Positions 1-14,354 of a stretch of 64,000 nt of DNA are shown piece by piece (the first letter of the stretch is position 1; each line of letters opens with the position of its first letter). Both the position numbers and the translations under genes were made by a program. Source of the DNA: Escherichia coli (GTDB lineage: Bacteria; Pseudomonadota; Gammaproteobacteria; Enterobacterales; Enterobacteriaceae). The notes under the pieces are model-generated. The model made no database searches, was not told the DNA's origin, and was given only the letters and a program-made list of their open reading frames with translations. The stretch lies in the NCBI RefSeq assembly GCF_044324875.1, contig NZ_CP172185.1; one strand, given 5' to 3'.

Positions 1-713
1 TCTGGTCGTTGTCTGTTATCCCTGACCACCATTGTTTTTGGCATTGTGAGTCTGATTCCGGATGTATGGCACGGTCGTTTTTTGCCGTATGCCTGCGTGC
101 CTGTGTTCAGTTCAGAGCAATTAACTCATCCGGCATGGAGAATTCCTGTGTGTAATGCGGTAAGAAATGACTGACATGCATGTTATATGTGAAGGGGCGT
201 GAGACGACATAATCAGTATGGTTGTTCTTCTGGTTGTAAAACGCGTTCGTTTTCCGGGATAGATGACGACGAAGTTAACTGACGAATAGGATGTTCCTGA
301 TGGTCTTTTCAGGGAGCGCAGATATACGGAGTAAGAAAAATAATTCCAGAGTAAGGTTGTCTGTTTTTTAACCAGTAAAGTTCCATGCCAGATGTGAAAA
401 CGGGAAACCAACATTCAGTCTGCATGGATGTCTGAAGATGTTGAGAATGTCGGATATGGTACTATATACACATATTTTACTAAGTATTTTTACTAAGCAT
501 TTCAGTAAGTGTTATACACACATTCTCACAAACAATTCTACAAGTGTTTTCATTAAGCATTGCTGTACACATTGCTTTGTATGATACACATCCCGTTTAG
601 TAAATCTTTACGTTAACTAAAATCTGTTTAATGCTGCTGTAAAACTAACCTTCCTGTTTAAGCAATCCATCTGCTATTCGATTTTGCTAATGTGACGTTT
701 AACCTTTCCTGAG

Positions 714-757
714 CTTTTGAGTTTTGAGTTTTGTGGTTTGTGGTTTGTGGTTTGTGT
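714..757. repeat. short tandem repeats: TTTTGAG x2 followed by TTTGTGG x3-4
   Basis: direct reading of bases 711-760 in an AT-rich non-coding stretch. Confidence 0.8.
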
Positions 758-1349
758 TTCGACGTTAGCATGAGAAAAGTATTTTTACGCTAAATCAACC
801 CGAACTTTCCTGAAGTAATCTGACGTTCTTTTCGATGTGCTTACGACGATTCTGTTAAACGACTTTCTGGATGTTTTGATAACGATCAGCCTGAGGTGTG
901 CATTAACGATTCCTGACGTTTTGCTTTTTCATGTAAGGTCATTGTTTTCGTCATGATGTGATTCATCTTGCATTGCGAAAGTGTGATGATTGGTTTTGGT
1001 GTTTTGTCGTGGATGCGGTTTACGTTATCGGTGGTTAAGCGTTTATGGTGTGTTGAAAAGTAACATACTCAAGATAAGAAAATCGATTCTGATGGGGATG
1101 ATCTTGTTACGACGTTATCTGTAAACAGGTTTTCAGCGTGTCATTTCGCATCCGCGATTGAGCGATGTTGTTAAGCTGCAGGTTTGATTTGCATTGTCTG
1201 GATGCGTTTCTGGTGTTTTGTTGATTCGTTTCCCTTCTGACTTTGTCGTTTTTAAATCCATTCGCTGTTGTTGTGTGTTTTTACCCTGCGTGCAGTGAAC
1301 CGCCCCGGGAATCCTGGAGACTAAACTCCCTGAGAAAGAGGTAAACAGA

Positions 1350-2563: not shown

Positions 2564-2677
2564 GTTCACAGATAAAACACTCTCCAGGAAACCCGGGGCG
2601 GTTCACAGGTTTGTCTTTTCGTTCGTAGGGGATTCATTCGCGATTGGCGTTGCGCAATGGTGGGATACGGTAAAGTT

Positions 2678-2722
2678 TTACCGCAGTGATTAATGATGTG
2701 AAGTCAATCCAAATCAATGGAG
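2678..2722 (+). promoter_or_regulatory. conserved 5' leader motif TTACCGCA-TG-TTAATGATGTGAA...GTCAA upstream of a YagK-family gene (copy 1)
   Basis: near-identical motif recurs at 9602-9645 upstream of another YagK-like gene. Confidence 0.45.
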
Positions 2723-2732
2723 ATCTCTCATC

Positions 2733-3464
2733 ATGAACCAACCAATACACAATGCTTACTGGTTATCCCGTTTTGACAGCCTGCTCGACAGTGCCCTGGC
2801 GCAACACCGTGCCGTCTCGTTCATCCGGGTGGATTTACGGTTTCCTGAGTATATGCCTGCCACCATCATGGACTCCGGGCCGGATTCAGCGGTGATTTCC
2901 CGTTTTTTCGCCTCCCTGAAAGCCAAAATTCAGGCTTACCAGCAGCATAAGCGACGTACCAGTCAGCGTGTGCATGCAACCAGCCTGCGTTATTTCTGGT
3001 GCCGGGAGTTCGGAGAGGAAGAAAACAGGAAACATTATCACGTGATATTACTGCTCAACAAAGATACCTGGTGCTCGCTCGGGGATTTCAGCGAACCATC
3101 TTCGCTGGCGGCGATGATCCAGGAGGCATGGTGCAGCGCTCTGCATCTTGAGCCCTGGCAAGGCGATGGTCTGGTCCATTTTTCCAGGTGGAAGCCTTTT
3201 CGTAAACCAGCATCGTCTGATGCCCGTCCTTCTTCCGGTGACACCCCTTTGTCGGGTGGATGTTCTGATACCAGGAAGGCTGCAGACAAAAAGCCGGGTG
3301 AAGCCGCTGTTCTCTGGATCAAGCGTGGTGATGTGGCAGCGATGCAGAAAGCCCGGAAAAGAGCCCGTTATCTCGTGAAAAATCAAACGAAGCAGCATGA
3401 CGGTTCTGGTCAACGTAATTATGGTTGCAGCCGTGGGCCGGGGCGTCTGCTGGATGGCAGGTGA
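2733..3464 (+). CDS. YagK/YfjJ-family protein (inovirus Gp2-like, prophage-associated)
   Basis: 243-aa ORF with VSFIRVDLRFP and HYHVILLLNKD signature segments recalled from CP4 prophage YagK/YfjJ proteins. Confidence 0.6.
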   Translation: MNQPIHNAYWLSRFDSLLDSALAQHRAVSFIRVDLRFPEYMPATIMDSGPDSAVISRFFASLKAKIQAYQQHKRRTSQRVHATSLRYFWCREFGEEENRKHYHVILLLNKDTWCSLGDFSEPSSLAAMIQEAWCSALHLEPWQGDGLVHFSRWKPFRKPASSDARPSSGDTPLSGGCSDTRKAADKKPGEAAVLWIKRGDVAAMQKARKRARYLVKNQTKQHDGSGQRNYGCSRGPGRLLDGR

Positions 3465-3974
3465 AGTCTGTAAAACGGTATCCGGTGCCAGGGGGGGGAT
3501 ATCACGGTAAGGGCGTCAGCCAACGTCTTTCGCTCGTATTCTGATAACCCGTCCTGAAGTCATGTATCTGCTTCCATTCTCATGTTCATATTTCTCTGAC
3601 GCTTTCACTGTCTGTCATCGGAAGTACCGATTTATTTTGGTGCTGCGCACTTACGGCCATTCACGGAAGAGGATTGTGGTGAACAGTAGGAGTCTGGCTG
3701 CTGGCGAGGGAAGGTTCAGGACTGGTATGGGGTTTAGTGCTGGAGGATGACTTTGAATCCCGGATTGACCAGTGAGGGGGCAGTGAGAGGATGCTCTGGT
3801 GTAACAGGTCTGGATTACAAAATATAAAACCGGTTGTACACTCGTAACGGGTAAAAGGATACGGGCAATAACACGTGGTACCCGGTGAGACTGGCTCTTG
3901 TATCACATTACCGGGAATATTCTGGCAGGTGAAATGTTCTGATAAGAATCATCCTGAGGGAGGATACAACGGAT

Positions 3975-4427
3975 ATGAACGTTATTGACAGCCGCATTCG
4001 TGATGTGAAATTTGGTGAAAATGTGAAAGTCGTCATGCCAGTAAACCTCTATGAATGTGAACTGGGGGATGATGTTTTTATCGGTCCCTTTGTGGAAATA
4101 CAGAAGGGATGCATCATTGGCAACCGGAGCCGAATTCAGTCCCACAGTTTCATCTGTGAGAACGTCATTTTAGGTGATGCCTGTTTCATCGGTCATGGCG
4201 TAACTTTTCCTAATGATCTGTTTAAGTGTGGTGGTCCCGATACCTCTGCAGAAAGCTGGATACGCATCGTATTAGGTAACACTGTAACAGTGGGTAGTGG
4301 AGCGACCATTTTAACAACAGAAATTTGCAGTGGAGCTGTGATTGGTGCTGGTAGTGTGGTTACAAAGCCCGTGCTGGTAAAAGGCGTGTATGCGGGTAAT
4401 CCGGCCAGACTTTTGAGAACGCTTTAA
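3975..4427 (+). CDS. hexapeptide-repeat (left-handed beta-helix) acyl/acetyltransferase
   Basis: 150-aa ORF with repeated [LIV]G-x-x-x-x hexapeptide pattern (IGNRSRIQSHSFI, IGHGVTF, VGSGATI, IGAGSVV). Confidence 0.6.
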   Translation: MNVIDSRIRDVKFGENVKVVMPVNLYECELGDDVFIGPFVEIQKGCIIGNRSRIQSHSFICENVILGDACFIGHGVTFPNDLFKCGGPDTSAESWIRIVLGNTVTVGSGATILTTEICSGAVIGAGSVVTKPVLVKGVYAGNPARLLRTL

Positions 4428-4678
4428 TTATTGAATCCAATATTAAACCAGACAGACAGTAAACATAATACTGTTCCGGATATCGCTTGCCGCAGGAACC
4501 TCCTTAACATTCAGGAAAATAAAGCTTTTATTGCTGCTATGTACCATAAGAGACAGAAGTAATTGATTTACCAGTATTACACCTGTTGAAGCTATGGTTA
4601 TTCACCTTTTATTTTTTGAGCAGCGTATTTATACTTCCCGGAGCATTGTTTAAATATAATCGCCCGGGATTGATTCGT

Positions 4679-5584
4679 ATGGCTCTTGAACAGGAAATCG
4701 CAAACCTTGTAAACGAGTTTGTCGCGGCTGGTCGTCCATCCTGTCGTGACCAGACCTTTGATGAACGCCGTGCCGGATATATCGCAAGTACTGCTCTGGC
4801 CGGCGATACAGAAACCCGCGTAAACATCAGTGATGTGATTATTGACGATGTTTTATTGCGCATATTTTCGCCTTTAAACGATGATGGGGTGTTATCCGCA
4901 ATTGTCTATTATCATGGTGGCTGTTTTGTCAGTGGTGGTTTTGTAACCCATGATAATCAGTTGCGACAGCTTGCTTTCCTGAGCGGTTGTCGTGTCATTG
5001 CTGTACAATATCGATTAACGCCGGAACATATTTATCCTGCGGCACATGACGATGCTGAACATGCCGCTAATATTGTGTGGCAACACGCAGAAATGTTGAA
5101 AGTTGATCGCAACAGAATAACGTTAATGGGGGATAGCGCTGGGGGACATCTTGCACTGATAACAGCACTGCGGGTTAAAAACATCGGTCAGTGGTTACCG
5201 CGAAAATTAATACTTATTTACCCTATGCTGGATGCCACAGCATCATGTGATAGTTACAAATTAAACGGTAGTGACTATGTGCTGACAGCAGACACGTTTC
5301 TTAGTGGTTATGAGGCTTATTTTTCCGGTCAGGATTTAGAACATCCGGAAGTGAGTCCATTATTCAGGAATGATTTCAATGGGTTACCACCTGTTCATGT
5401 CATCACAGCGGAATATGACCCATTACGCGATGAAGGTGAGGAACTGTTTTCCCGTATGATTCAACAAGGAGTAAAGTGTACCGCCCAGCGTTATCTCGGT
5501 GTCATTCACGGTTTTTTCCAGCTTGGCGGCATTAGCCAGACAGCCCGTAATCTGATGCAGGATATTTGTGGGATTGTTAAATAA
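4679..5584 (+). CDS. alpha/beta-hydrolase esterase/lipase (Aes-like)
   Basis: HGGG-type oxyanion motif (YYHGGCF) and GDSAGG nucleophile elbow; start placed at first ATG after a TTG-initiated hydrophobic leader. Confidence 0.65.
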   Translation: MALEQEIANLVNEFVAAGRPSCRDQTFDERRAGYIASTALAGDTETRVNISDVIIDDVLLRIFSPLNDDGVLSAIVYYHGGCFVSGGFVTHDNQLRQLAFLSGCRVIAVQYRLTPEHIYPAAHDDAEHAANIVWQHAEMLKVDRNRITLMGDSAGGHLALITALRVKNIGQWLPRKLILIYPMLDATASCDSYKLNGSDYVLTADTFLSGYEAYFSGQDLEHPEVSPLFRNDFNGLPPVHVITAEYDPLRDEGEELFSRMIQQGVKCTAQRYLGVIHGFFQLGGISQTARNLMQDICGIVK

Positions 5585-5830
5585 TCACGTAACAAGCAGC
5601 TACAGGTAAATTAGCTGAGCATGCATCCATCATTTGTCGCTGCGATGCCAGACTTCCGGATGCTCATATGTTGTTTTACTTTTGTCAGCATAAATGCTGC
5701 GTCGGGACTGGTGAATGGAGATAAGCCATTTTATTATCGACGTCAGAGAACATACTCACAATGTCGGTATGTTTCTGAAATTAAGGGTAAGTTTTGCGCT
5801 GATTACAGTATGCGAAGGAGATCTGGCACA

Positions 5831-7423
5831 ATGAATCCCGCTTATATGCAATCCCCCCATTTCCCGGCAGATTTAACATACAGATTATTTCCTCGTAAGC
5901 TTGCGTATCTCATTGACGACTTATATGAAAGTACCCAACTTCCGCTGGATCTCATTTTTAATACTGTACTGGCAACGCTCTCACTCTCCTGTCAGTCATT
6001 GGTTGACGTTGTTCATCCTCACACCAACATGCCGGAACCCTGCTCACTTTATCTGTTGACAATCGCAGAGCCAGGCGCGGGAAAAACAACGATAAACAGA
6101 CTGGTGATGAACCCCTGTTACGACTTTGCCGATCGACTCATTCAACAATACGAAGAGAGAAACAAAGATTATAAAACTGAACTACAGATCTGGAATACCC
6201 GACAGAAAGCTCTTTCTGCCAGTTTAAGAAAGGCTATTAACCGGGGGTATCCGGGAGAACAGGAAGAAGAGGCGCTGCGTAATCACGAAAGAAATAAACC
6301 GACACGTCCGGTTCGACCGAATTTTATCTATGAAGATGTTTCACTTAAAGCGCTTGTGGAAGGACTCAACGAGCATCCGGAGGCGGGAGTTATTTCTGAT
6401 GAAGCGGTAACTTTTTTCAGAAGCTATCTGAAAAATAGTCCTGGTCTGTTGAATAAAGCATGGAGTGGACAACCGTTTGATTTTGGACGGGCTGACGAGA
6501 AATATCATATCACTCCACGCCTGACATTTTCGCTAATGTCCCAACCGGATGTTTTTACGGCTTATATAAATAAAAATGATGTACTGGCCAGGGGAAGCGG
6601 ATTTCTTTCCCGGTTTCTGTTCAGTCAGGTTGTAAGTTCTTCCTGGATACGTGATTATACGAGAGGTGAGTTCAGAACAATACCAACCCTGGAGAATTTT
6701 CATAAAAAGATTAACGGATTTCTGTTAAGCCATAACATTAATTCCCCCGGCATGAGCACCGAAAGGAAGACATTAAAACTTGCGAAGAAAGCGTTGGGGG
6801 AGTGGCAGGAAAACCAGAGTAAGATTGAAAGCAAAGCGCTTGCAGGAGGGGAGTGGGAACACATCAGAGATATTGTTCTGAAAGCAGGTTCTAATATACT
6901 GAGGATAGCGGGTTTATTCACCTTCTATGGCAATAAAGATGCTGAGGAAATTGAATCAATTGCGCTTTTTAACGCCATGCATCTCATGGACTGGTATCTG
7001 GAGGAGGCAAGCGCAATATTTTATCCCATGTCTGAGCGACGCCAGTTTGAGCAGGATGCCTGTGAACTGTATGCATGGATTATGACCCGAATCAGGCAGA
7101 ATAACTGGTGTGCTATCAGGAAAACAGATATTGAAAGATATGGTCCCAATCGACTGAGAAGAGCAGAAAAGCTTACACCTGTACTCAATCAGTTAATTGC
7201 TCAGAATTATTTCTGTATCATCAAAATGCGCTCGCATCAGGCACTTTATGTTTCTGTTCGTAACAATAATGGTTACCTCCTTCCTTTCGGCACAATGTCT
7301 TACGAACCGTTTGATGTTGTACCCTCCTTGTATAGTCATAATGCGAAAATATATCCCGTTAATATTCCACCGGAATTAATCCAGTCATTTGCGTTACCTT
7401 TTTCAGCCTATAACTTATTCTGA
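5831..7423 (+). CDS. P-loop NTPase, DUF3987/YfjI-like (P4 primase-associated helicase-like protein)
   Basis: Walker A AEPGAGKTT; RBS GGAG 10 nt upstream of ATG 5831; architecture recalls CP4-57 YfjI. Confidence 0.5.
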   Translation: MNPAYMQSPHFPADLTYRLFPRKLAYLIDDLYESTQLPLDLIFNTVLATLSLSCQSLVDVVHPHTNMPEPCSLYLLTIAEPGAGKTTINRLVMNPCYDFADRLIQQYEERNKDYKTELQIWNTRQKALSASLRKAINRGYPGEQEEEALRNHERNKPTRPVRPNFIYEDVSLKALVEGLNEHPEAGVISDEAVTFFRSYLKNSPGLLNKAWSGQPFDFGRADEKYHITPRLTFSLMSQPDVFTAYINKNDVLARGSGFLSRFLFSQVVSSSWIRDYTRGEFRTIPTLENFHKKINGFLLSHNINSPGMSTERKTLKLAKKALGEWQENQSKIESKALAGGEWEHIRDIVLKAGSNILRIAGLFTFYGNKDAEEIESIALFNAMHLMDWYLEEASAIFYPMSERRQFEQDACELYAWIMTRIRQNNWCAIRKTDIERYGPNRLRRAEKLTPVLNQLIAQNYFCIIKMRSHQALYVSVRNNNGYLLPFGTMSYEPFDVVPSLYSHNAKIYPVNIPPELIQSFALPFSAYNLF

Positions 7424-8202
7424 AATAAACCAACACAGATGAAACGAAAAAAAACAACATTCATTCGAAGGTTGGTGGTAAGGAGTTTGCATATCCTGCA
7501 TCTGTGCAAATATTCACCAGTTATGGGGCGCGAACGAAAATTTCTCTGAAAAAATCGCTACGGTAGCAACAGTAGCAGCACATGCACCATGTCTGTTATT
7601 TGATTTTGTTTTCATAATGACCTGTTGTCAAAGCTGATTGAATACAGGAGTGTGCGCACTGGTGGAAGAGTGGCTTTCGTTTTTGGTTATTCGAAAGAAA
7701 ATCGAAATATTGTTTTTAACATAGCTGAAGCTAATCATATAACCATATTTTTTGAGTTTTTATATATAACTTTGTTTGATTCTTGTCGTAATGAGTGCTG
7801 GCGTATATGACGATGTCGCTCTCTTTCTGAATAACGAAAGGTTATCAGTCTTTTACTGACAAGAGATGCTGTTCAGGTTTCAATGGGAGATTGAAGAAAA
7901 ACGATTTGATATTTTCCGTGAGAGAATGTCTTGTCAGGTTCATATTCATAACGGATAATTTCTTATTTTCACTCATCAGACATGGATAATTTTAATTTAG
8001 GTTTATTACTATAATTAGTATCTGTTCCTTTATTTTTATCCATCTATCCCTTTATTTTTCATCTATCTATCCTTTTATTATTAGTATCTGTATTTTTATT
8101 ATTGGCATCTGTCTATTTATTTTTATCATTCTCTCCTCTCTGTCTTTACTCTCATTGCTCTTACTCTCATTCTGTTATTTCTACTCGTGTTATCGTGTTC
8201 AC

Positions 8203-8234
8203 TCTATCACTCTATCACTCTATCACTCTATCAC
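8203..8234. repeat. 8-bp tandem repeat TCTATCAC x4 inside a ~300-bp low-complexity AT-rich tract
   Basis: direct reading of 7980-8260. Confidence 0.8.
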
Positions 8235-8985
8235 TCTATCCATCTCTCAATCATAACGATTGTCACTCATATGATACTCAGCCATGTTATTTTCTACTGC
8301 TCTGCTGAGCTTATCTGTCTGTTCTCATCTTCAGTGAAACAGCACCTGATTTTACTCTTATCCATCATGAACTGTCTTTGTTCAACGATGATGGTATGTC
8401 TGATATGTGTTAACCATTTTGATGGGTATCGTTGATTATCCGATGGTTAAGCTTCGATAAGGTTATCCATAGAACAGTGTGGGGTAAGCAACATGATCCC
8501 TGATGATATTTGTTCCGTGTTGTCTTGTTGTTTAAGCGACAGGAAATATGTCAATGGCATGTTTTATTCTGCTGCCGTGAGCCATGCATGTTCTGAAGAA
8601 CAGATTGAATGAGCGCATGTGAGTTTATTACGTTGGCCTTGTACACGTTTTTTTTAGAACCACTGAGAGCAAGTTTGTAGTTTATGATGCTATTGGTCGT
8701 AATATGTTTCTTGAACTTTTGATCGTGGGTTTTTATCTCGTATTTTTCAGCATTTCTCGGTGTTGTATTGCGTCGATATTTTCTTTATTCCCGTTAATAT
8801 CATCTCGTCAGTGTCCATTCCTTTCATCACAATGCGTATCGTTAATAATCTGTTGTATCCATCCGCCTACAGCATGCCTGATAAATACCGTCTGTCAGTT
8901 ATTACCGTTTTAGATCTGATTATGAGCGAAGGTATTCATTCGCTGACAGAACTTAAAACGTCATTAACTTACAGGAGTTATCAGC

Positions 8986-9552
8986 ATGCCTCAGTCTTAC
9001 ACACCAGACTGGTTTTTTACCGCCTTACTTGACCATCACATCGATCAAATGATGGCTCGCTATTCCTGTCTGCGGGCCTTACGGATGGATTTCTTCTACA
9101 GGAAAGAGACGCCTGATTTCTTACAACCTGATCACCGCTGGCTTGAATTGCAGTTGCGTATGCTGCTGGACCAGGTTGAACGGTTTGAAAATATGGTTGG
9201 TTTCTTCTGGGTGATTGAATGGACGGCTGATCATGGTTTTCATGCGCATGTGGTTTTCTGGATCGATCGTCAGAGGGTGAAAAAAATATATCCCTTTGCG
9301 GAGCGGATAACCGAATGCTGGCGGGCTATTACGTATAACTGTGGTTCGGCGCACCGCTGTACATACCAGCCGCATTATGCATACAACATCAACATTCCCG
9401 TGCGCCACAACGATCCTGAAAGCATCGATAATATTCGCGGTGCCCTGCATTATCTGGCGAAAGAAGAGCAAAAAGACGGACTGTGTGCATACGGCTGCAG
9501 CGAAGTGCCTGAACGTCCTGCTGCAGGGCGACCACGCAAGCTTCACGTCTGA
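8986..9552 (+). CDS. YagK/YfjJ-family protein (inovirus Gp2-like)
   Basis: 188-aa ORF, LRMDFFYRKE and FHAHVVFWIDR segments parallel to the 2733 ORF. Confidence 0.55.
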   Translation: MPQSYTPDWFFTALLDHHIDQMMARYSCLRALRMDFFYRKETPDFLQPDHRWLELQLRMLLDQVERFENMVGFFWVIEWTADHGFHAHVVFWIDRQRVKKIYPFAERITECWRAITYNCGSAHRCTYQPHYAYNINIPVRHNDPESIDNIRGALHYLAKEEQKDGLCAYGCSEVPERPAAGRPRKLHV

Positions 9553-9601
9553 AGCTTAAACCCTGAACCTCCGCACCTGGAAACAAGCCATCGGTAAAAA
9601 C

Positions 9602-9645
9602 TTACCGCATTGCTTAATGATGTGAACCGAAGTCAACGGAGTTCA
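9602..9645 (+). promoter_or_regulatory. conserved 5' leader motif (copy 2) upstream of YagK-like gene 9791
   Basis: TTACCGCATTGCTTAATGATGTGAACCGAAGTCAACGGAG matches the 2678-2722 motif. Confidence 0.45.
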
Positions 9646-9790
9646 TTCACCCTGAATGTTCTTTCCTGATATTCCCGCTCAGCGTCGGTTCTTCACCTGT
9701 TCCATCAACCTCATCCGCAGCCTGTAACCCGTCAGCCCATCCATCCCCGGGCAGGACGCGTTGTGGGCTGCGCATAACGGAGCATATCCT

Positions 9791-10366
9791 ATGAATGCTT
9801 TCCCTTATTTCGACGACAGCATGGCCCCCTTCTGGCCTTCGTATCAGAACAAAGTTATTGGCGTTCTTGACCGTGCGCTGCGTGAGCAGTCCGGCTCCCG
9901 GATACGTCGTATCCTGCTTCGTCTGCCGTGGGAACCCGATAACACCTTCAGCAGCCGCAGGACCTGGTTCGGTATGGCCTTTATTGAAACCGTCAGCGAC
10001 CTGATGAATGCAACCCCCGGACGTGACCTCTGCTGGCTCCTGACACGTCATCCTGAAAAGCCGGAATACCACGTGGTGCTGTGCGTCAGGCAGGAGTATT
10101 TCGACGGCCCTGAACTGGATCGGCTGATTCTGGATGCCTGGAGCAACGTGCTGGGCTTCGCCTCACCGGGGGAAGCGGCACCGTATCAGAAGCAGATTAC
10201 CCGGGATGTGCTGCTGGATCCCCGTTCACCGGACTGCGAGGAACTGTTCAGAGACCTGATCTGGGCGTTCAGTGATTTCGCACGTGATCGCCGGGGGGTA
10301 TACGATCCGGAAGCCCGTCACCTCGCCGGTAATCCCTGGTATCCCGGATCAGCAGGACGGCGCTGA
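9791..10366 (+). CDS. YagK/YfjJ-like protein (divergent paralog)
   Basis: RIRRILLRLPWEPD and EYHVVLCVRQEY segments analogous to YagK signature; ATG 9791 follows the conserved leader. Confidence 0.45.
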   Translation: MNAFPYFDDSMAPFWPSYQNKVIGVLDRALREQSGSRIRRILLRLPWEPDNTFSSRRTWFGMAFIETVSDLMNATPGRDLCWLLTRHPEKPEYHVVLCVRQEYFDGPELDRLILDAWSNVLGFASPGEAAPYQKQITRDVLLDPRSPDCEELFRDLIWAFSDFARDRRGVYDPEARHLAGNPWYPGSAGRR

Positions 10367-11508: not shown

Positions 11509-14354
11509 ATGAAAATCTGTCTTTACCATACCCTGAATCCTGAAACGATCCCGGGCTATAAAAAGTTTGCGCAGGCCATTGAGGCAGATAATTTCGCGCA
11601 GGCGGATGTGCGTAAAATTGATACTAATCTCTACCGGGCACGCCTCAGTATCCGGGATCGGTTGTTGTTTTCACTTTACCGTTACCGTGGTGAGACGGTC
11701 TGCCTGGTACTGGAATATCTGCGTAACCATGCTTACCACACGTCACGTTTTCTGCGCAGGAATGTGGTGATCGACGAGGCGCGGCTGCAGCTGCAACCGG
11801 TGCCGGATCCGGCAGATGCAGACGCCGGTACACTGACGTATCTCAACCCCACTCACGGGCGTTTTCACTACCTGGATAAAATGCTCTCTTTTGATGATGA
11901 CCAGCAGGCGCTGTATGAACATCCGATGCCACTGGTGATTGTCGGCTCCGCCGGCAGCGGAAAGACGGCACTGTTACTGGAGAAAATGAAGCAGGCCGGG
12001 GGCGATATTCTGTATCTCAGCCTTTCGTCATTTCTGGTGGAAAAAGCCCGCACACTCTATCACGCATCTGGTGAAGAACATGACGGGCAGACCATTGATT
12101 TTCTGTCGCTGAGCGAGTTTCTGGAAACCCTGCGCATTCCGGAAGGGCGGGAGGTGACGTTCAGTGCGTTCAGCAACTGGCTGCCCCGCAACCGGACCAC
12201 CGCTGCACTGGGCTCTGGCCATACCCTGTATGAGGAATTTCGTGGTGTCATTGGTGCCGTTGCTTCTGACAACGGACCGCTGTCCCGGGAGGCGTATCTG
12301 TCGCTGGGAGTACGTCAGTCACTTTATGATATGGATGACCGTCCGGCGGTTTACGCCCTGTTTGAGCGTTATGTTGCATGGCTGAAACAGTCGCGTCAGT
12401 ATGACAGTAATCTTCTCAGCCACCAGTACCTGCCACTGGCCGGGCACCGTTATGATGTGGTTTTTGTGGATGAAGTGCAGGATATGACGCCTGTGCAGCT
12501 GCGGCTGGTTCTGAAAACCCTGCGTCATCCCGGTCAGTTTGTACTCTGCGGCGATGCCAATCAGATAGTTCATCCCAGCTTTTTTCCTGGAGTGCCCTCA
12601 AAAGCCTCTTTTTCCGGCAGCAACAGAACGAGGCTGCCGTGAATATTCTGCAGGCGAATTACCGTAACGGGCACCATGTCACCGCACTGGCTAACCGGCT
12701 GCTCAGACTTAAACTGGCCCGGTTCAGTGCCATTGACCGGGAAAGTCACCATTTTGTCAGAAGCTGCGGGCAGACGGAAGGCACCATCAGGCTGCTGGAA
12801 GACCGGGAAGCCACCCGCCATGAGCTGAACAGCAAAACCTCCCGCTCAAACCGTGTGGCGGTGATTGTGATGCAGCCGGAGCAGAAAGCACAGGCCCGGC
12901 GCTGGTTCAGTACACCGCTGGTTTTTTCGGTTCAGGAAGTGAAGGGGCTCGAGTACGAAACGGTGATCCTGTACAACATGGTCAGCAGTACCCGTAAGGC
13001 ATTTGATGATATCTGCGAAGGGATCAATCCGGCAGATCCTGAGGGTGAGGTGCGTTATGCCCACCCCCGGGACCGGCAGGATCGTTCAGCAGAAATCTAC
13101 AGGTTTTTCACCAACGCGCTGTATGTTGCGCTCACCCGTGCCACGCACAACGTGTACCTTGTTGAGCAGGAGGTGGCCCATCCGCTGTGGTCCCTGCTGG
13201 CCCTCACGCATCATGAAACGCAACTGGAGCTGCAGGAAGAGATTTCCAGCCGTGATGAGTGGCAGAAAACCGCTCACCTGCTGGAAAAACAGGGGAAGCA
13301 GGAGCAGGTGGACACCATCCGCAGTATGATCCTGCAGGAGTCAGAAGTACCGTGGCAGATCTTCAGCGCAGAGGATGCGCGGCAGTGGAAACAGCAGATC
13401 CTCAGCGGGACGGCGGACAAAGCCACGAAACTGCAGGCGCTGGAATACAGCCTGATTTATTCCCTGTTTCCGCTGTATAATGCGCTGTACCGGGAAGATT
13501 TTAAGCCCACAAGGCAGCCCCGGACCCGGAGCCAGCAGTTACTGGAGCAGAAGTATTTTCGTCCCTACTCAGTGAATAATCCGGTCGCCGTGCTGAGGGA
13601 TATTGAACGTTATGGTGTTGATCACCGCTCGCCGTTTAATCTTACGCCGCTGATGCTGGCAGCCCGGGCGGGGAACACGGCGCTGGTTCAGTTGCTGCTG
13701 GATCGTGGTGCCGATCCCACGCTGACGGCAAATGACGGGCTGGCGGCGTATCATCATGTTCTGTCAGCGGCGGTCAGCACGCCCCGTTATGCGCAGCAGA
13801 AGGGGGCACAACTCTATGCCTTGCCGGGACCGGAAAGCCTGTCACTGCAGGTGGAAGGGCGGCTTGTCAAACTGGACAACCGGCAGATGGCAATGTTTCT
13901 GGTGATCCTGATGCAGGCATTGTTTTACACGCATCTGGGGAATGCTCTGGTTTTTTCAGAAGCCTTCAGTGCGGCACGACTGGCAGAGTGTGTCGCCCAC
14001 TTTCCTGAAGCCCTGCTGCCGGAACGCCGCAGGCGGAGGAATTATATCAGCAGCCAGCTTTCTCAGCATGAAGTTAACAGCAAGAACCCTTATGGAAAAA
14101 AGCTGTTTCTGCGACTGAGGCATGGTCAGTATATTCTTAATCCGGGGCTGAAAATCAGGCAGAATGACGGGTGGTACCCGGTTTACGACTTGCAGTCACC
14201 GGAAGATCTCGGTCATGATTTACAGACGTATCTGCAGGACATGCCCCCGTACATTCTGGAGATTCTGGGGGGCAGGAAGGATGTTTACGAACAAAGTAAG
14301 GGGTCTGTCGGATACTGGGTGGCGATGATCCGCCGTCACAGTGGTGAGCCGTAA
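11509..14354 (+). pseudogene. UvrD/Rep-like SF1 helicase with C-terminal ankyrin repeats, split by a frameshift in a T6 tract (12580-12585)
   Basis: Walker A GSAGSGKT, motif II VFVDEVQD, motif III CGDANQ in frame 1; downstream NYRNG, ALTRATH motifs and ankyrin repeat (LTPLMLAARAGNTALVQLLLDRGADP) in frame 3; adding one T restores one ORF of about 947 aa. Confidence 0.7.

Follow-up and report, generated by a model that had tools for sequence, protein, structure and literature searches.

What kind of DNA is the 1.3 kb of AT-rich sequence that opens a 64,000-nucleotide (nt) stretch of Escherichia coli (assembly GCF_044324875.1, contig NZ_CP172185.1), here called the window? The first-pass annotation had described positions 1-1295 as AT-rich and devoid of open reading frames (ORFs) over 100 amino acids (aa) on both strands, and had proposed a degraded gene, a curved regulatory region or an uncharacterised RNA. 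The coordinates and the content proved correct: G+C is 39.8% (0.398 vs 0.479 for the whole window), and the longest ORF on either strand has 97 aa (121-414, minus strand). In shuffled sequences with the same bases, the longest ORF had a median length of 71 aa and was shorter than 100 aa in 88% of cases, so the ORF content of 1-1295 is at the level of random sequence. With modest confidence, the analysis favours the view that 1-1295 is an intergenic control spacer of a CP4-like E. coli island, repeat-prone, for the most part unconstrained and cut by an insertion sequence (IS).

The spacer does not naturally end at 1295. An IS3-family element has inserted at this point, and the last 124 nt of the spacer follow on the other side of this element at 2609-2732. 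After removal of the IS and one copy of the CAG at its ends, the spacer measures 1419 nt (1-1295 plus 2609-2732), 1-1295 making up the distal nine-tenths. The reconstituted 1419 nt align end to end with positions 8001-9470 of the locus L001 of E. coli IMT16316, directly upstream of a gene annotated as belonging to the 'inovirus Gp2 family'. The empty site is represented by the metagenomic contig L018, which carries nearly the same allele, is uninterrupted across the junction and reads ...GCGTGCAGGTTTGTC... there.

Of 5426 complete E. coli genomes, 1815 gave megablast matches to a related spacer, at 2419 places, with at most five places per genome, almost all of them chromosomal and 78-87% identical. 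No full-length match with an identity of at least 95% was present among the complete E. coli genomes, where the four best places (at least 90%) are apparently short partial matches, and plasmids gave three weak matches only. An exact 22-mer of the most conserved block was encountered in one of about 100,000 species-representative genomes, in a contig of a metagenome-assembled genome (MAG) that looks misbinned; the spacer sequence is thus essentially confined to E. coli and Shigella. Sixteen E. coli loci, picked across the whole megablast ranking, were fetched for comparison (individual loci and contigs are designated by L numbers). In each of the 16, a 732-nt Gp2-family gene on the plus strand immediately follows the spacer. 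The left side of each carries, all on the minus strand, a gene for a YfjP-type GTPase and, farther away, genes for WYL/helix-turn-helix, DUF905, DUF932, antirestriction, JAB, DUF987 and CbeA/CbtA proteins. Between the GTPase gene and the Gp2-family gene, all 16 loci have one or two variable hypothetical genes and then 1.5-2.8 kb without a convincing gene. Judged by this gene content, the locus is the backbone of an integrative island of the CP4-57/SRL-PAI type. The left-hand gene block of the related loci falls outside the window, and the spacer sits between divergently oriented gene blocks. A search of the literature on YfjJ/YagK/inovirus Gp2, on DUF3987/YfjI and on the hexamer discussed below as an MLVA locus (multiple-locus analysis of variable-number tandem repeats) found no description of the spacer, which is real, widespread and unannotated.

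Distant relatives retain the divergent order GTPase (minus)/hypothetical (minus) ... Gp2 (plus)-AlpA (plus), with spacers of 281-1105 nt that have no sequence in common with the E. coli spacer. ORF-free gaps of 1.1-1.7 kb with 37-39% G+C are found in Enterobacter (L022, 2217-3902), Serratia (L024, 1343-2765) and Rouxiella (L028, 3896-5000). They separate the genes on the GTPase side from Gp2-AlpA, are unlike the E. coli spacer in sequence and do not always adjoin the Rep-like gene.

The anatomy and divergence of the spacer were derived from an alignment of 17 sequences. The variable left arm (1-336) is alignable only where the left neighbour is a 289-aa minus-strand gene family (L001, L002, L004, L011 and L015-L017), and the other alleles have unrelated sequence there. 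From about 337 to the start codon the spacer is homologous in every allele. Its core, the distal part of which is 337-1295 and which continues at 2609-2732, is present in 16 of 16 E. coli loci and in four metagenomic contigs, always upstream of the Gp2-family gene. Beyond about 760, two deep allele classes, A and B, are seen, with obvious mosaicism. In a further strain, E. coli LH50-c (L030), the sequence is 98.3% identical to the window over 2664-9600, with a different spacer allele on the left. With this identity beginning at 2664, a recombination breakpoint is placed in or close to the operator-like palindrome described below.

In the 17 loci, the pairwise identity of the Gp2-family gene averages 0.936 (0.952 at codon positions 1 and 2, 0.904 at position 3). 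In 50-nt bins of the spacer, the corresponding values are 0.45-0.60 for 1-350, 0.84-0.92 for 400-800, 0.76-0.87 for 800-1050 and 0.64-0.76 for 1050-1350. For the core, 337-1295, the mean is 0.70-0.92. Compared with the 0.904 of the third positions, these values indicate that most of 1-1295 changes about as fast as the synonymous sites next door in the gene, or faster. An identity of 0.96-0.99, above that of the third codon positions of the gene, is reached only in the last ~70 nt before the ATG. The alignment thus clearly points to purifying selection only in the proximal ~95 nt, which lie beyond 1-1295. The distal spacer tolerates disruption, as follows from the IS629-like insertion in the window, from a 531-nt ORF (177 aa, minus strand) that replaces roughly 1020-1290 in L005, L011, L013 and L014, and from a deletion of ~19 nt around 565-583 in L009 and L011-L013. 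In L005, the 177-aa ORF occupies 4788-5318; its product (WP_000778605.1) has no annotated function, and the ORF comes with ~1 kb of flanking DNA.

The proximal part of the spacer (2609-2732, plus strand) contains the palindrome CGGTAAAGTTTTACCG (CGGTAAA-N2/3-TTTACCG) at 2668-2683, followed by TTAATGATGTGAA at 2690-2702 and by the ribosome-binding site GGAG at 2719-2722. In Enterobacter, Rouxiella and Morganellaceae, a related string, GGTAATG..TATGRA..AATCAAC.GGAG, lies upstream of the homologue of the gene. The palindrome together with TTAATGATGTGAA, about 35 nt, recurs at 9591-9626, upstream of the island ORF 9761-10366, and the same pairing is present in L001. We infer that the module is the Gp2-family gene's own promoter/operator, and by its recurrence the palindrome module looks like an operator/promoter shared for an island regulator.

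In the favoured view, the functional content of the spacer would be regulatory and would reside in this constrained module, within the ~95 nt that immediately precede the Gp2 start, with a distal promoter-like block at 441-468 perhaps contributing. The remaining spacer would be AT-rich filler of the kind usually coated by xenogeneic silencers such as H-NS, and the heptamer expansion seen in the window would represent a neutral length polymorphism and no switch. Of the first-pass candidates, the curved regulatory region is the one that survives in part: the spacer is most plausibly read as intergenic and regulatory, and curvature found no support, the phasing of the A/T tracts at 10-11 bp being non-significant (8-34% of shuffles reach the same power). 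The lack of phasing is also one of several observations that weigh against the favoured view. The high-affinity H-NS motif tCGwTwAATT is absent from 1-1295 at up to one mismatch. Sigma-70-like sites are not enriched, with one against 2.9 expected in the window spacer and three against 5.3 in L001. The word 'regulatory' is an extrapolation from position. Every sampled allele has kept about 1 kb of DNA that seems to be unconstrained, despite the deletional bias of bacterial genomes, and the strong strand asymmetry (T over A, G over C) is not accounted for.

A degraded gene received no backing. Six-frame translations with masked stops gave no Pfam matches at E ≤ 1 and no PHROGs matches at E ≤ 0.1, and the homologous part of the spacer contains no ORF of at least 100 aa in the window, L001, L006 or L016. 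The 177-aa ORF of four alleles is an insertion that is not homologous to the spacer. A tblastn comparison of Enterobacter proteins from the syntenic position with the 17 spacer alleles gave a best E-value of 2.5. RefSeq lists minus-strand 'hypothetical proteins' of 57-82 aa in the spacer (L001, 9118-9366; L004, 5007-5180; L008, 3348-3596). Their translations are of low complexity, and the window, with indels of 13, 34, 13 and 13 nt, does not keep the frame of the minus-strand ORF. These spacer proteins are probably false gene calls.

Could the spacer be wholly functionless, consisting of one or more eroded ancient genes or of filler hitch-hiking with a successful island? The near-neutral divergence over most of its length, the shuffled-like ORF content and the tolerance of IS, gene insertions and deletions agree with such an origin. 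The plus strand of 337-1295 is rich in T and G (AT skew -0.24, GC skew +0.14), and this purine excess of the minus strand, along with the short low-complexity minus-strand ORFs, would fit a long-dead minus-strand gene. However, no residual protein similarity is left in any frame, the frame of the 82-aa minus-strand ORF is not maintained in the window, and both the block at ~440-700 and the proximal 95 nt are conserved at or above the level of synonymous sites. It seems rather unlikely that the spacer has no function at all, although this explanation overlaps the favoured one, since most of the length of a control spacer may also be filler.

The suggestion of an uncharacterised RNA was likewise not borne out by Rfam, folding energies or covariation. 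Rfam 15 gave no match on either strand of 1-1295, even at E ≤ 10. Folding z-scores in sliding windows stayed within ±2 on both strands except at 441-560 (z -3.1/-2.5). The structure at 441-560 depends on a 9-bp inverted repeat (442-450/520-528) that is not kept in other alleles and was rejected. With column shuffling as the control, sliding RNAalifold singled out 337-457 alone, where the consensus is a CATGC/GCATG stem of 5 bp, invariant and with three G-U variants, next to a small hairpin. None of the 10 pairs found by RNAalifold shows a compensatory change, and the stem was rejected too. A T-loop hairpin at 355-376 was discarded, being no more stable than shuffles in eight of ten alleles.

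The putative promoter-like block on the plus strand at 441-468 has the form TTGAGA-N13-TACTAT(ATA), with TG before TACTAT. Its sequence TTGAGAATGTCGG is identical in 15 of the 17 alleles, L012 and L013 reading TTGCTAATGTCGG, and both allele classes retain TGnTACTAT. By its sequence, the block could be a rightward extended -10 promoter; a strict sigma-70 scan did not call it. Another promoter-like site, on the minus strand at 1125-1098, is retained in class-A alleles only. No intrinsic terminator was found between the 441-468 block and the Gp2 gene, in either the window or L001. Transcription of the plus strand from 441-468 might accordingly yield a long U-rich leader or non-coding RNA controlling the Gp2-family gene. 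The conserved TTGAGA/TGnTACTAT block, the terminator-free path to the gene and the T/G-rich, C-poor composition of the plus strand, which would be a poor Rho substrate, speak in favour of such a transcript. Against it stand the lack of an Rfam match, folding energies that are shuffle-like save at 441-560, where the inverted repeat is not conserved, and the failure of RNAalifold to give anything other than the invariant 5-bp stem without compensatory pairs. Besides, the Gp2-family gene possesses its own highly conserved proximal module, and the IS629-like element and the 531-nt ORF insertion would each break the leader. A regulatory leader is therefore very unlikely.

The claim of heptamer tandem tracts was substantiated by a period-7 array at 715-759, (TTTTGAG)2 TTTTGTG (GTTTGTG)3, for which Tandem Repeats Finder (TRF) reports 6.4 copies, 92% matches and a score of 55. 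The same program detected a period-13 array of 2.2 copies with the unit TTTTACTAAGYAT at 475-502. This 13-nt repeat belongs to degenerate modules of ~50 nt, TATACACRYAT ... TTTTACTAAG, at 467-595, which were recognised by TRF together with a repeat-family search. Comparison of alleles disclosed two more variable repeats, each present as a single unit in the window: the 17-mer GTTTAGTAAATCTTTAC at 595-611 and the hexamer TGATGG at 1090-1095, a variable-number repeat in other alleles. The dispersed direct repeats noticed in the first-pass annotation are real as well. Their numbers are above first-order Markov expectation (TTCCTGA three times against 0.10, GACGTT five times against 0.52, TACACA and TTAAGC four times each against 0.18), and correction for the number of k-mers tested leaves each of them alone only borderline.

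It had also been remarked that heptamer tracts can slip, and a comparison of repeat number had been advised. Tract lengths measured between conserved flanks in 21 copies show that copy number does vary, from two units in most alleles to about 4-7 in the window and its nearest metagenomic relatives. The tract is 14-16 nt long in 16 of 16 E. coli loci and 35 nt long in the metagenomic loci L019-L021; the window has 49 nt and L018 has 56 nt. The two-unit tracts of the E. coli loci read TTTCGAG TTTCGAC or TTTTTGTG TTTTAGT. L018, the closest relative found of the window allele, has the tract (TTTTGAG)4 TTTTGTG (GTTTGTG)2 and is otherwise almost identical over 457-950. Among class-A alleles, TGATGG occurs as one unit in L009 and L018, two in L002, L003, L019 and L020, three in L001, four in L008 and six in L010 and L021; in class-B alleles it is not a repeat. 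The 17-mer GTTTAGTAAATCTTTAC is present in three tandem copies in L002, in two in L021 and in one in the others, and the array of ~50-nt modules comprises one to four modules and spans 62-161 nt across alleles. At least four short tandem-repeat loci in the spacer thus vary in copy number from allele to allele, the pattern that would result from slipped-strand mispairing. The first-pass annotation had named an ordinary disrupted gene along with an invariant repeat number as the outcome that would speak against it, and neither was found.

Variation of this sort raises the question of whether the heptamer tract is a contingency locus, at which slippage phase-varies a neighbouring gene. The difference in unit number between the window (2+4) and the nearly identical L018 (4+3) is what such a locus would produce. 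However, the tract lies outside any ORF with a conserved frame and is not flanked by recognisable -35/-10 elements. It is located ~250 nt from the only promoter-like block and ~670 nt from the Gp2 start codon in the uninterrupted spacer, and the two units of most alleles are too few for frequent slippage. As the tract is outside conserved ORFs and promoter elements, no route is seen by which changes in unit number might switch a gene. A phase-variation switch is highly improbable, and the heptamer polymorphism is regarded as neutral.

The gene next to the spacer prompts one more explanation of the repeats. The Gp2/YagK-YfjJ family gene (2733-3464, plus strand) encodes a 243-aa protein that matches PF23343 REP_ORF2-G2P and keeps the motifs RVDL, HxH and YxxK. 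Fold comparison of its model suggests an HUH nuclease/origin-binding fold, and it is predicted to be a Rep-like nuclease; a sequence search of solved structures with this protein gave no match. HUH Rep proteins characteristically bind short direct repeats beside their nick site, and their origins usually adjoin rep, as in rolling-circle replication plasmids, parvoviruses, geminiviruses and the Ff intergenic region. The spacer might accordingly be a cis-acting origin (a double-strand origin or one like an origin of transfer, oriT) of the adjacent protein, with the repeats as iterons and a nick site nearby, and the excised island could then replicate by the rolling-circle mechanism or be mobilised as single-stranded DNA. 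As expected of an origin, the spacer adjoins a rep gene with intact HUH and catalytic tyrosine motifs, the PF23343 match and the modelled HUH fold of whose product are consistent with this role. A second Gp2-like gene (8986-9552) is likewise situated behind a 1.5-kb AT-rich spacer with tandem repeats.

The alleles, however, contain neither a conserved hairpin or nick sequence nor conserved iterons. No repeat array is constant in copy number, and several are absent or single-copy in whole allele classes and reach six or seven units elsewhere; no conserved hairpin with compensatory changes was found across alleles, and the spacer drifts at about the neutral rate. Homologous genes elsewhere have short upstream regions, of 281-407 nt in Serratia, Enterobacter and Morganellaceae (407 nt in the last) and of 152 nt for yfjJ of K-12, and in the window the IS629-like element parts the gene from the whole distal spacer. 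The sole constrained element, the palindrome, is found again before an unrelated ORF, which makes it look like an operator. On this evidence, an origin in the spacer is quite unlikely. A broader proposal would make origins of the spacers before both HUH Rep-like genes and rolling-circle replicons or single-strand-mobilised elements of CP4-like islands, the repeats being fast-evolving iterons that set Rep specificity or incompatibility between co-resident islands, of which there are up to five copies per genome. It is a doubtful proposal, to be entertained only speculatively.

The second ORF-poor spacer (7424-8985) has 36% G+C and an AT skew of -0.21 and lies between a DUF3987/YfjI-family gene (5621-7423) and the Gp2-like gene 8986-9552. 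Its tandem arrays have units of ~22 nt (8019-8129, about five units) and of 8 nt (TCACTCTA, 5.2 copies, 8199-8240). No sequence is common to it and the first spacer, and Rfam gave no credible match. In E. coli LH50-c it is unannotated too. Farther along the window, the ORFs 11509-12642 (the N-terminal part of a UvrD helicase) and 12639-14354 (UvrD_C with ankyrin repeats) overlap. They seem to be a single helicase gene that a frameshift has split, and the equivalent in LH50-c is annotated as frameshifted.

The element that splits the spacer is a 1310-bp IS3-family element on the plus strand (1296-2605), its ends being those of IS629. Its terminal inverted repeats are TGAACCGCCCCGGG.../...CCCGGGGCGGTTCA; TGAACCGCCCCGGGAATCC opens the element at 1296, and an inverted copy closes it at 2605. 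The target-site duplication CAG, read from the sequence, occupies 1293-1295 on the left and 2606-2608 on the right. Two overlapping ORFs (1350-1676 and 1673-2563) are accompanied by a full-length ALIL frameshift pseudoknot at 1631-1747 (116 bits, E 7.6e-31), the sole strong Rfam match, which lies inside the IS. With terminal repeats, a 3-bp duplication, two overlapping ORFs and a frameshift pseudoknot, the element has the features sought for membership of the IS3 family, and it looks intact.

Taken as a control spacer, the region is of little import as it stands, being one more AT-rich island spacer with neutral-looking length polymorphisms. It has some practical bearing: annotation pipelines put dubious 'hypothetical proteins' of 57-82 aa into it, and four close variable repeats in an element of about one-third of complete E. 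coli genomes may be of use for typing or a nuisance for assembly. If it were true that the apparently intact HUH Rep-like protein acts on the spacer, CP4-like islands would gain a mechanism of replication or transfer; to our knowledge, nobody has assigned a mechanism of this kind to them.

Among known systems, a close parallel is provided by the CP4-57 and SRL-PAI islands of E. coli and Shigella (alpA-yfjI-yfjJ). They have the same gene families on the left (YfjP-type GTPase, DUF932, antirestriction, CbtA/CbeA) and on the right (YagK/YfjJ, DUF3987, AlpA-type), and their control region is likewise AT-rich and unannotated. In CP4-57 of K-12, though, only 152 nt precede yfjJ, whereas the present spacer measures about 1.4-2.8 kb and is full of variable tandem repeats. 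The region upstream of gene II of Ff phages and the double-strand origins of the pMV158 type, with their iterons, resemble the spacer in position only, as a non-coding region with direct repeats before a Gp2-like gene whose product is modelled with an HUH fold. Unlike these origins, the spacer has no conserved nick-site hairpin, its arrays are not conserved, its divergence is near-neutral, and homologues of the gene elsewhere lack a long upstream region. Regarding its units of 6, 7, 13 and 17 nt that vary between strains, the spacer is comparable to non-coding variable-number tandem-repeat loci of E. coli of the MLVA type. It differs from the usual loci of this type in that four are packed into ~650 nt of a single island spacer, for which no link to a published typing locus was found. 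Finally, the spacer lacks the phased A-tracts and the high-affinity H-NS motif, but it is like H-NS-silenced AT-rich island regions in its ~60% A+T against 52% for the window, in its location in an acquired island and in its position between divergent gene blocks.

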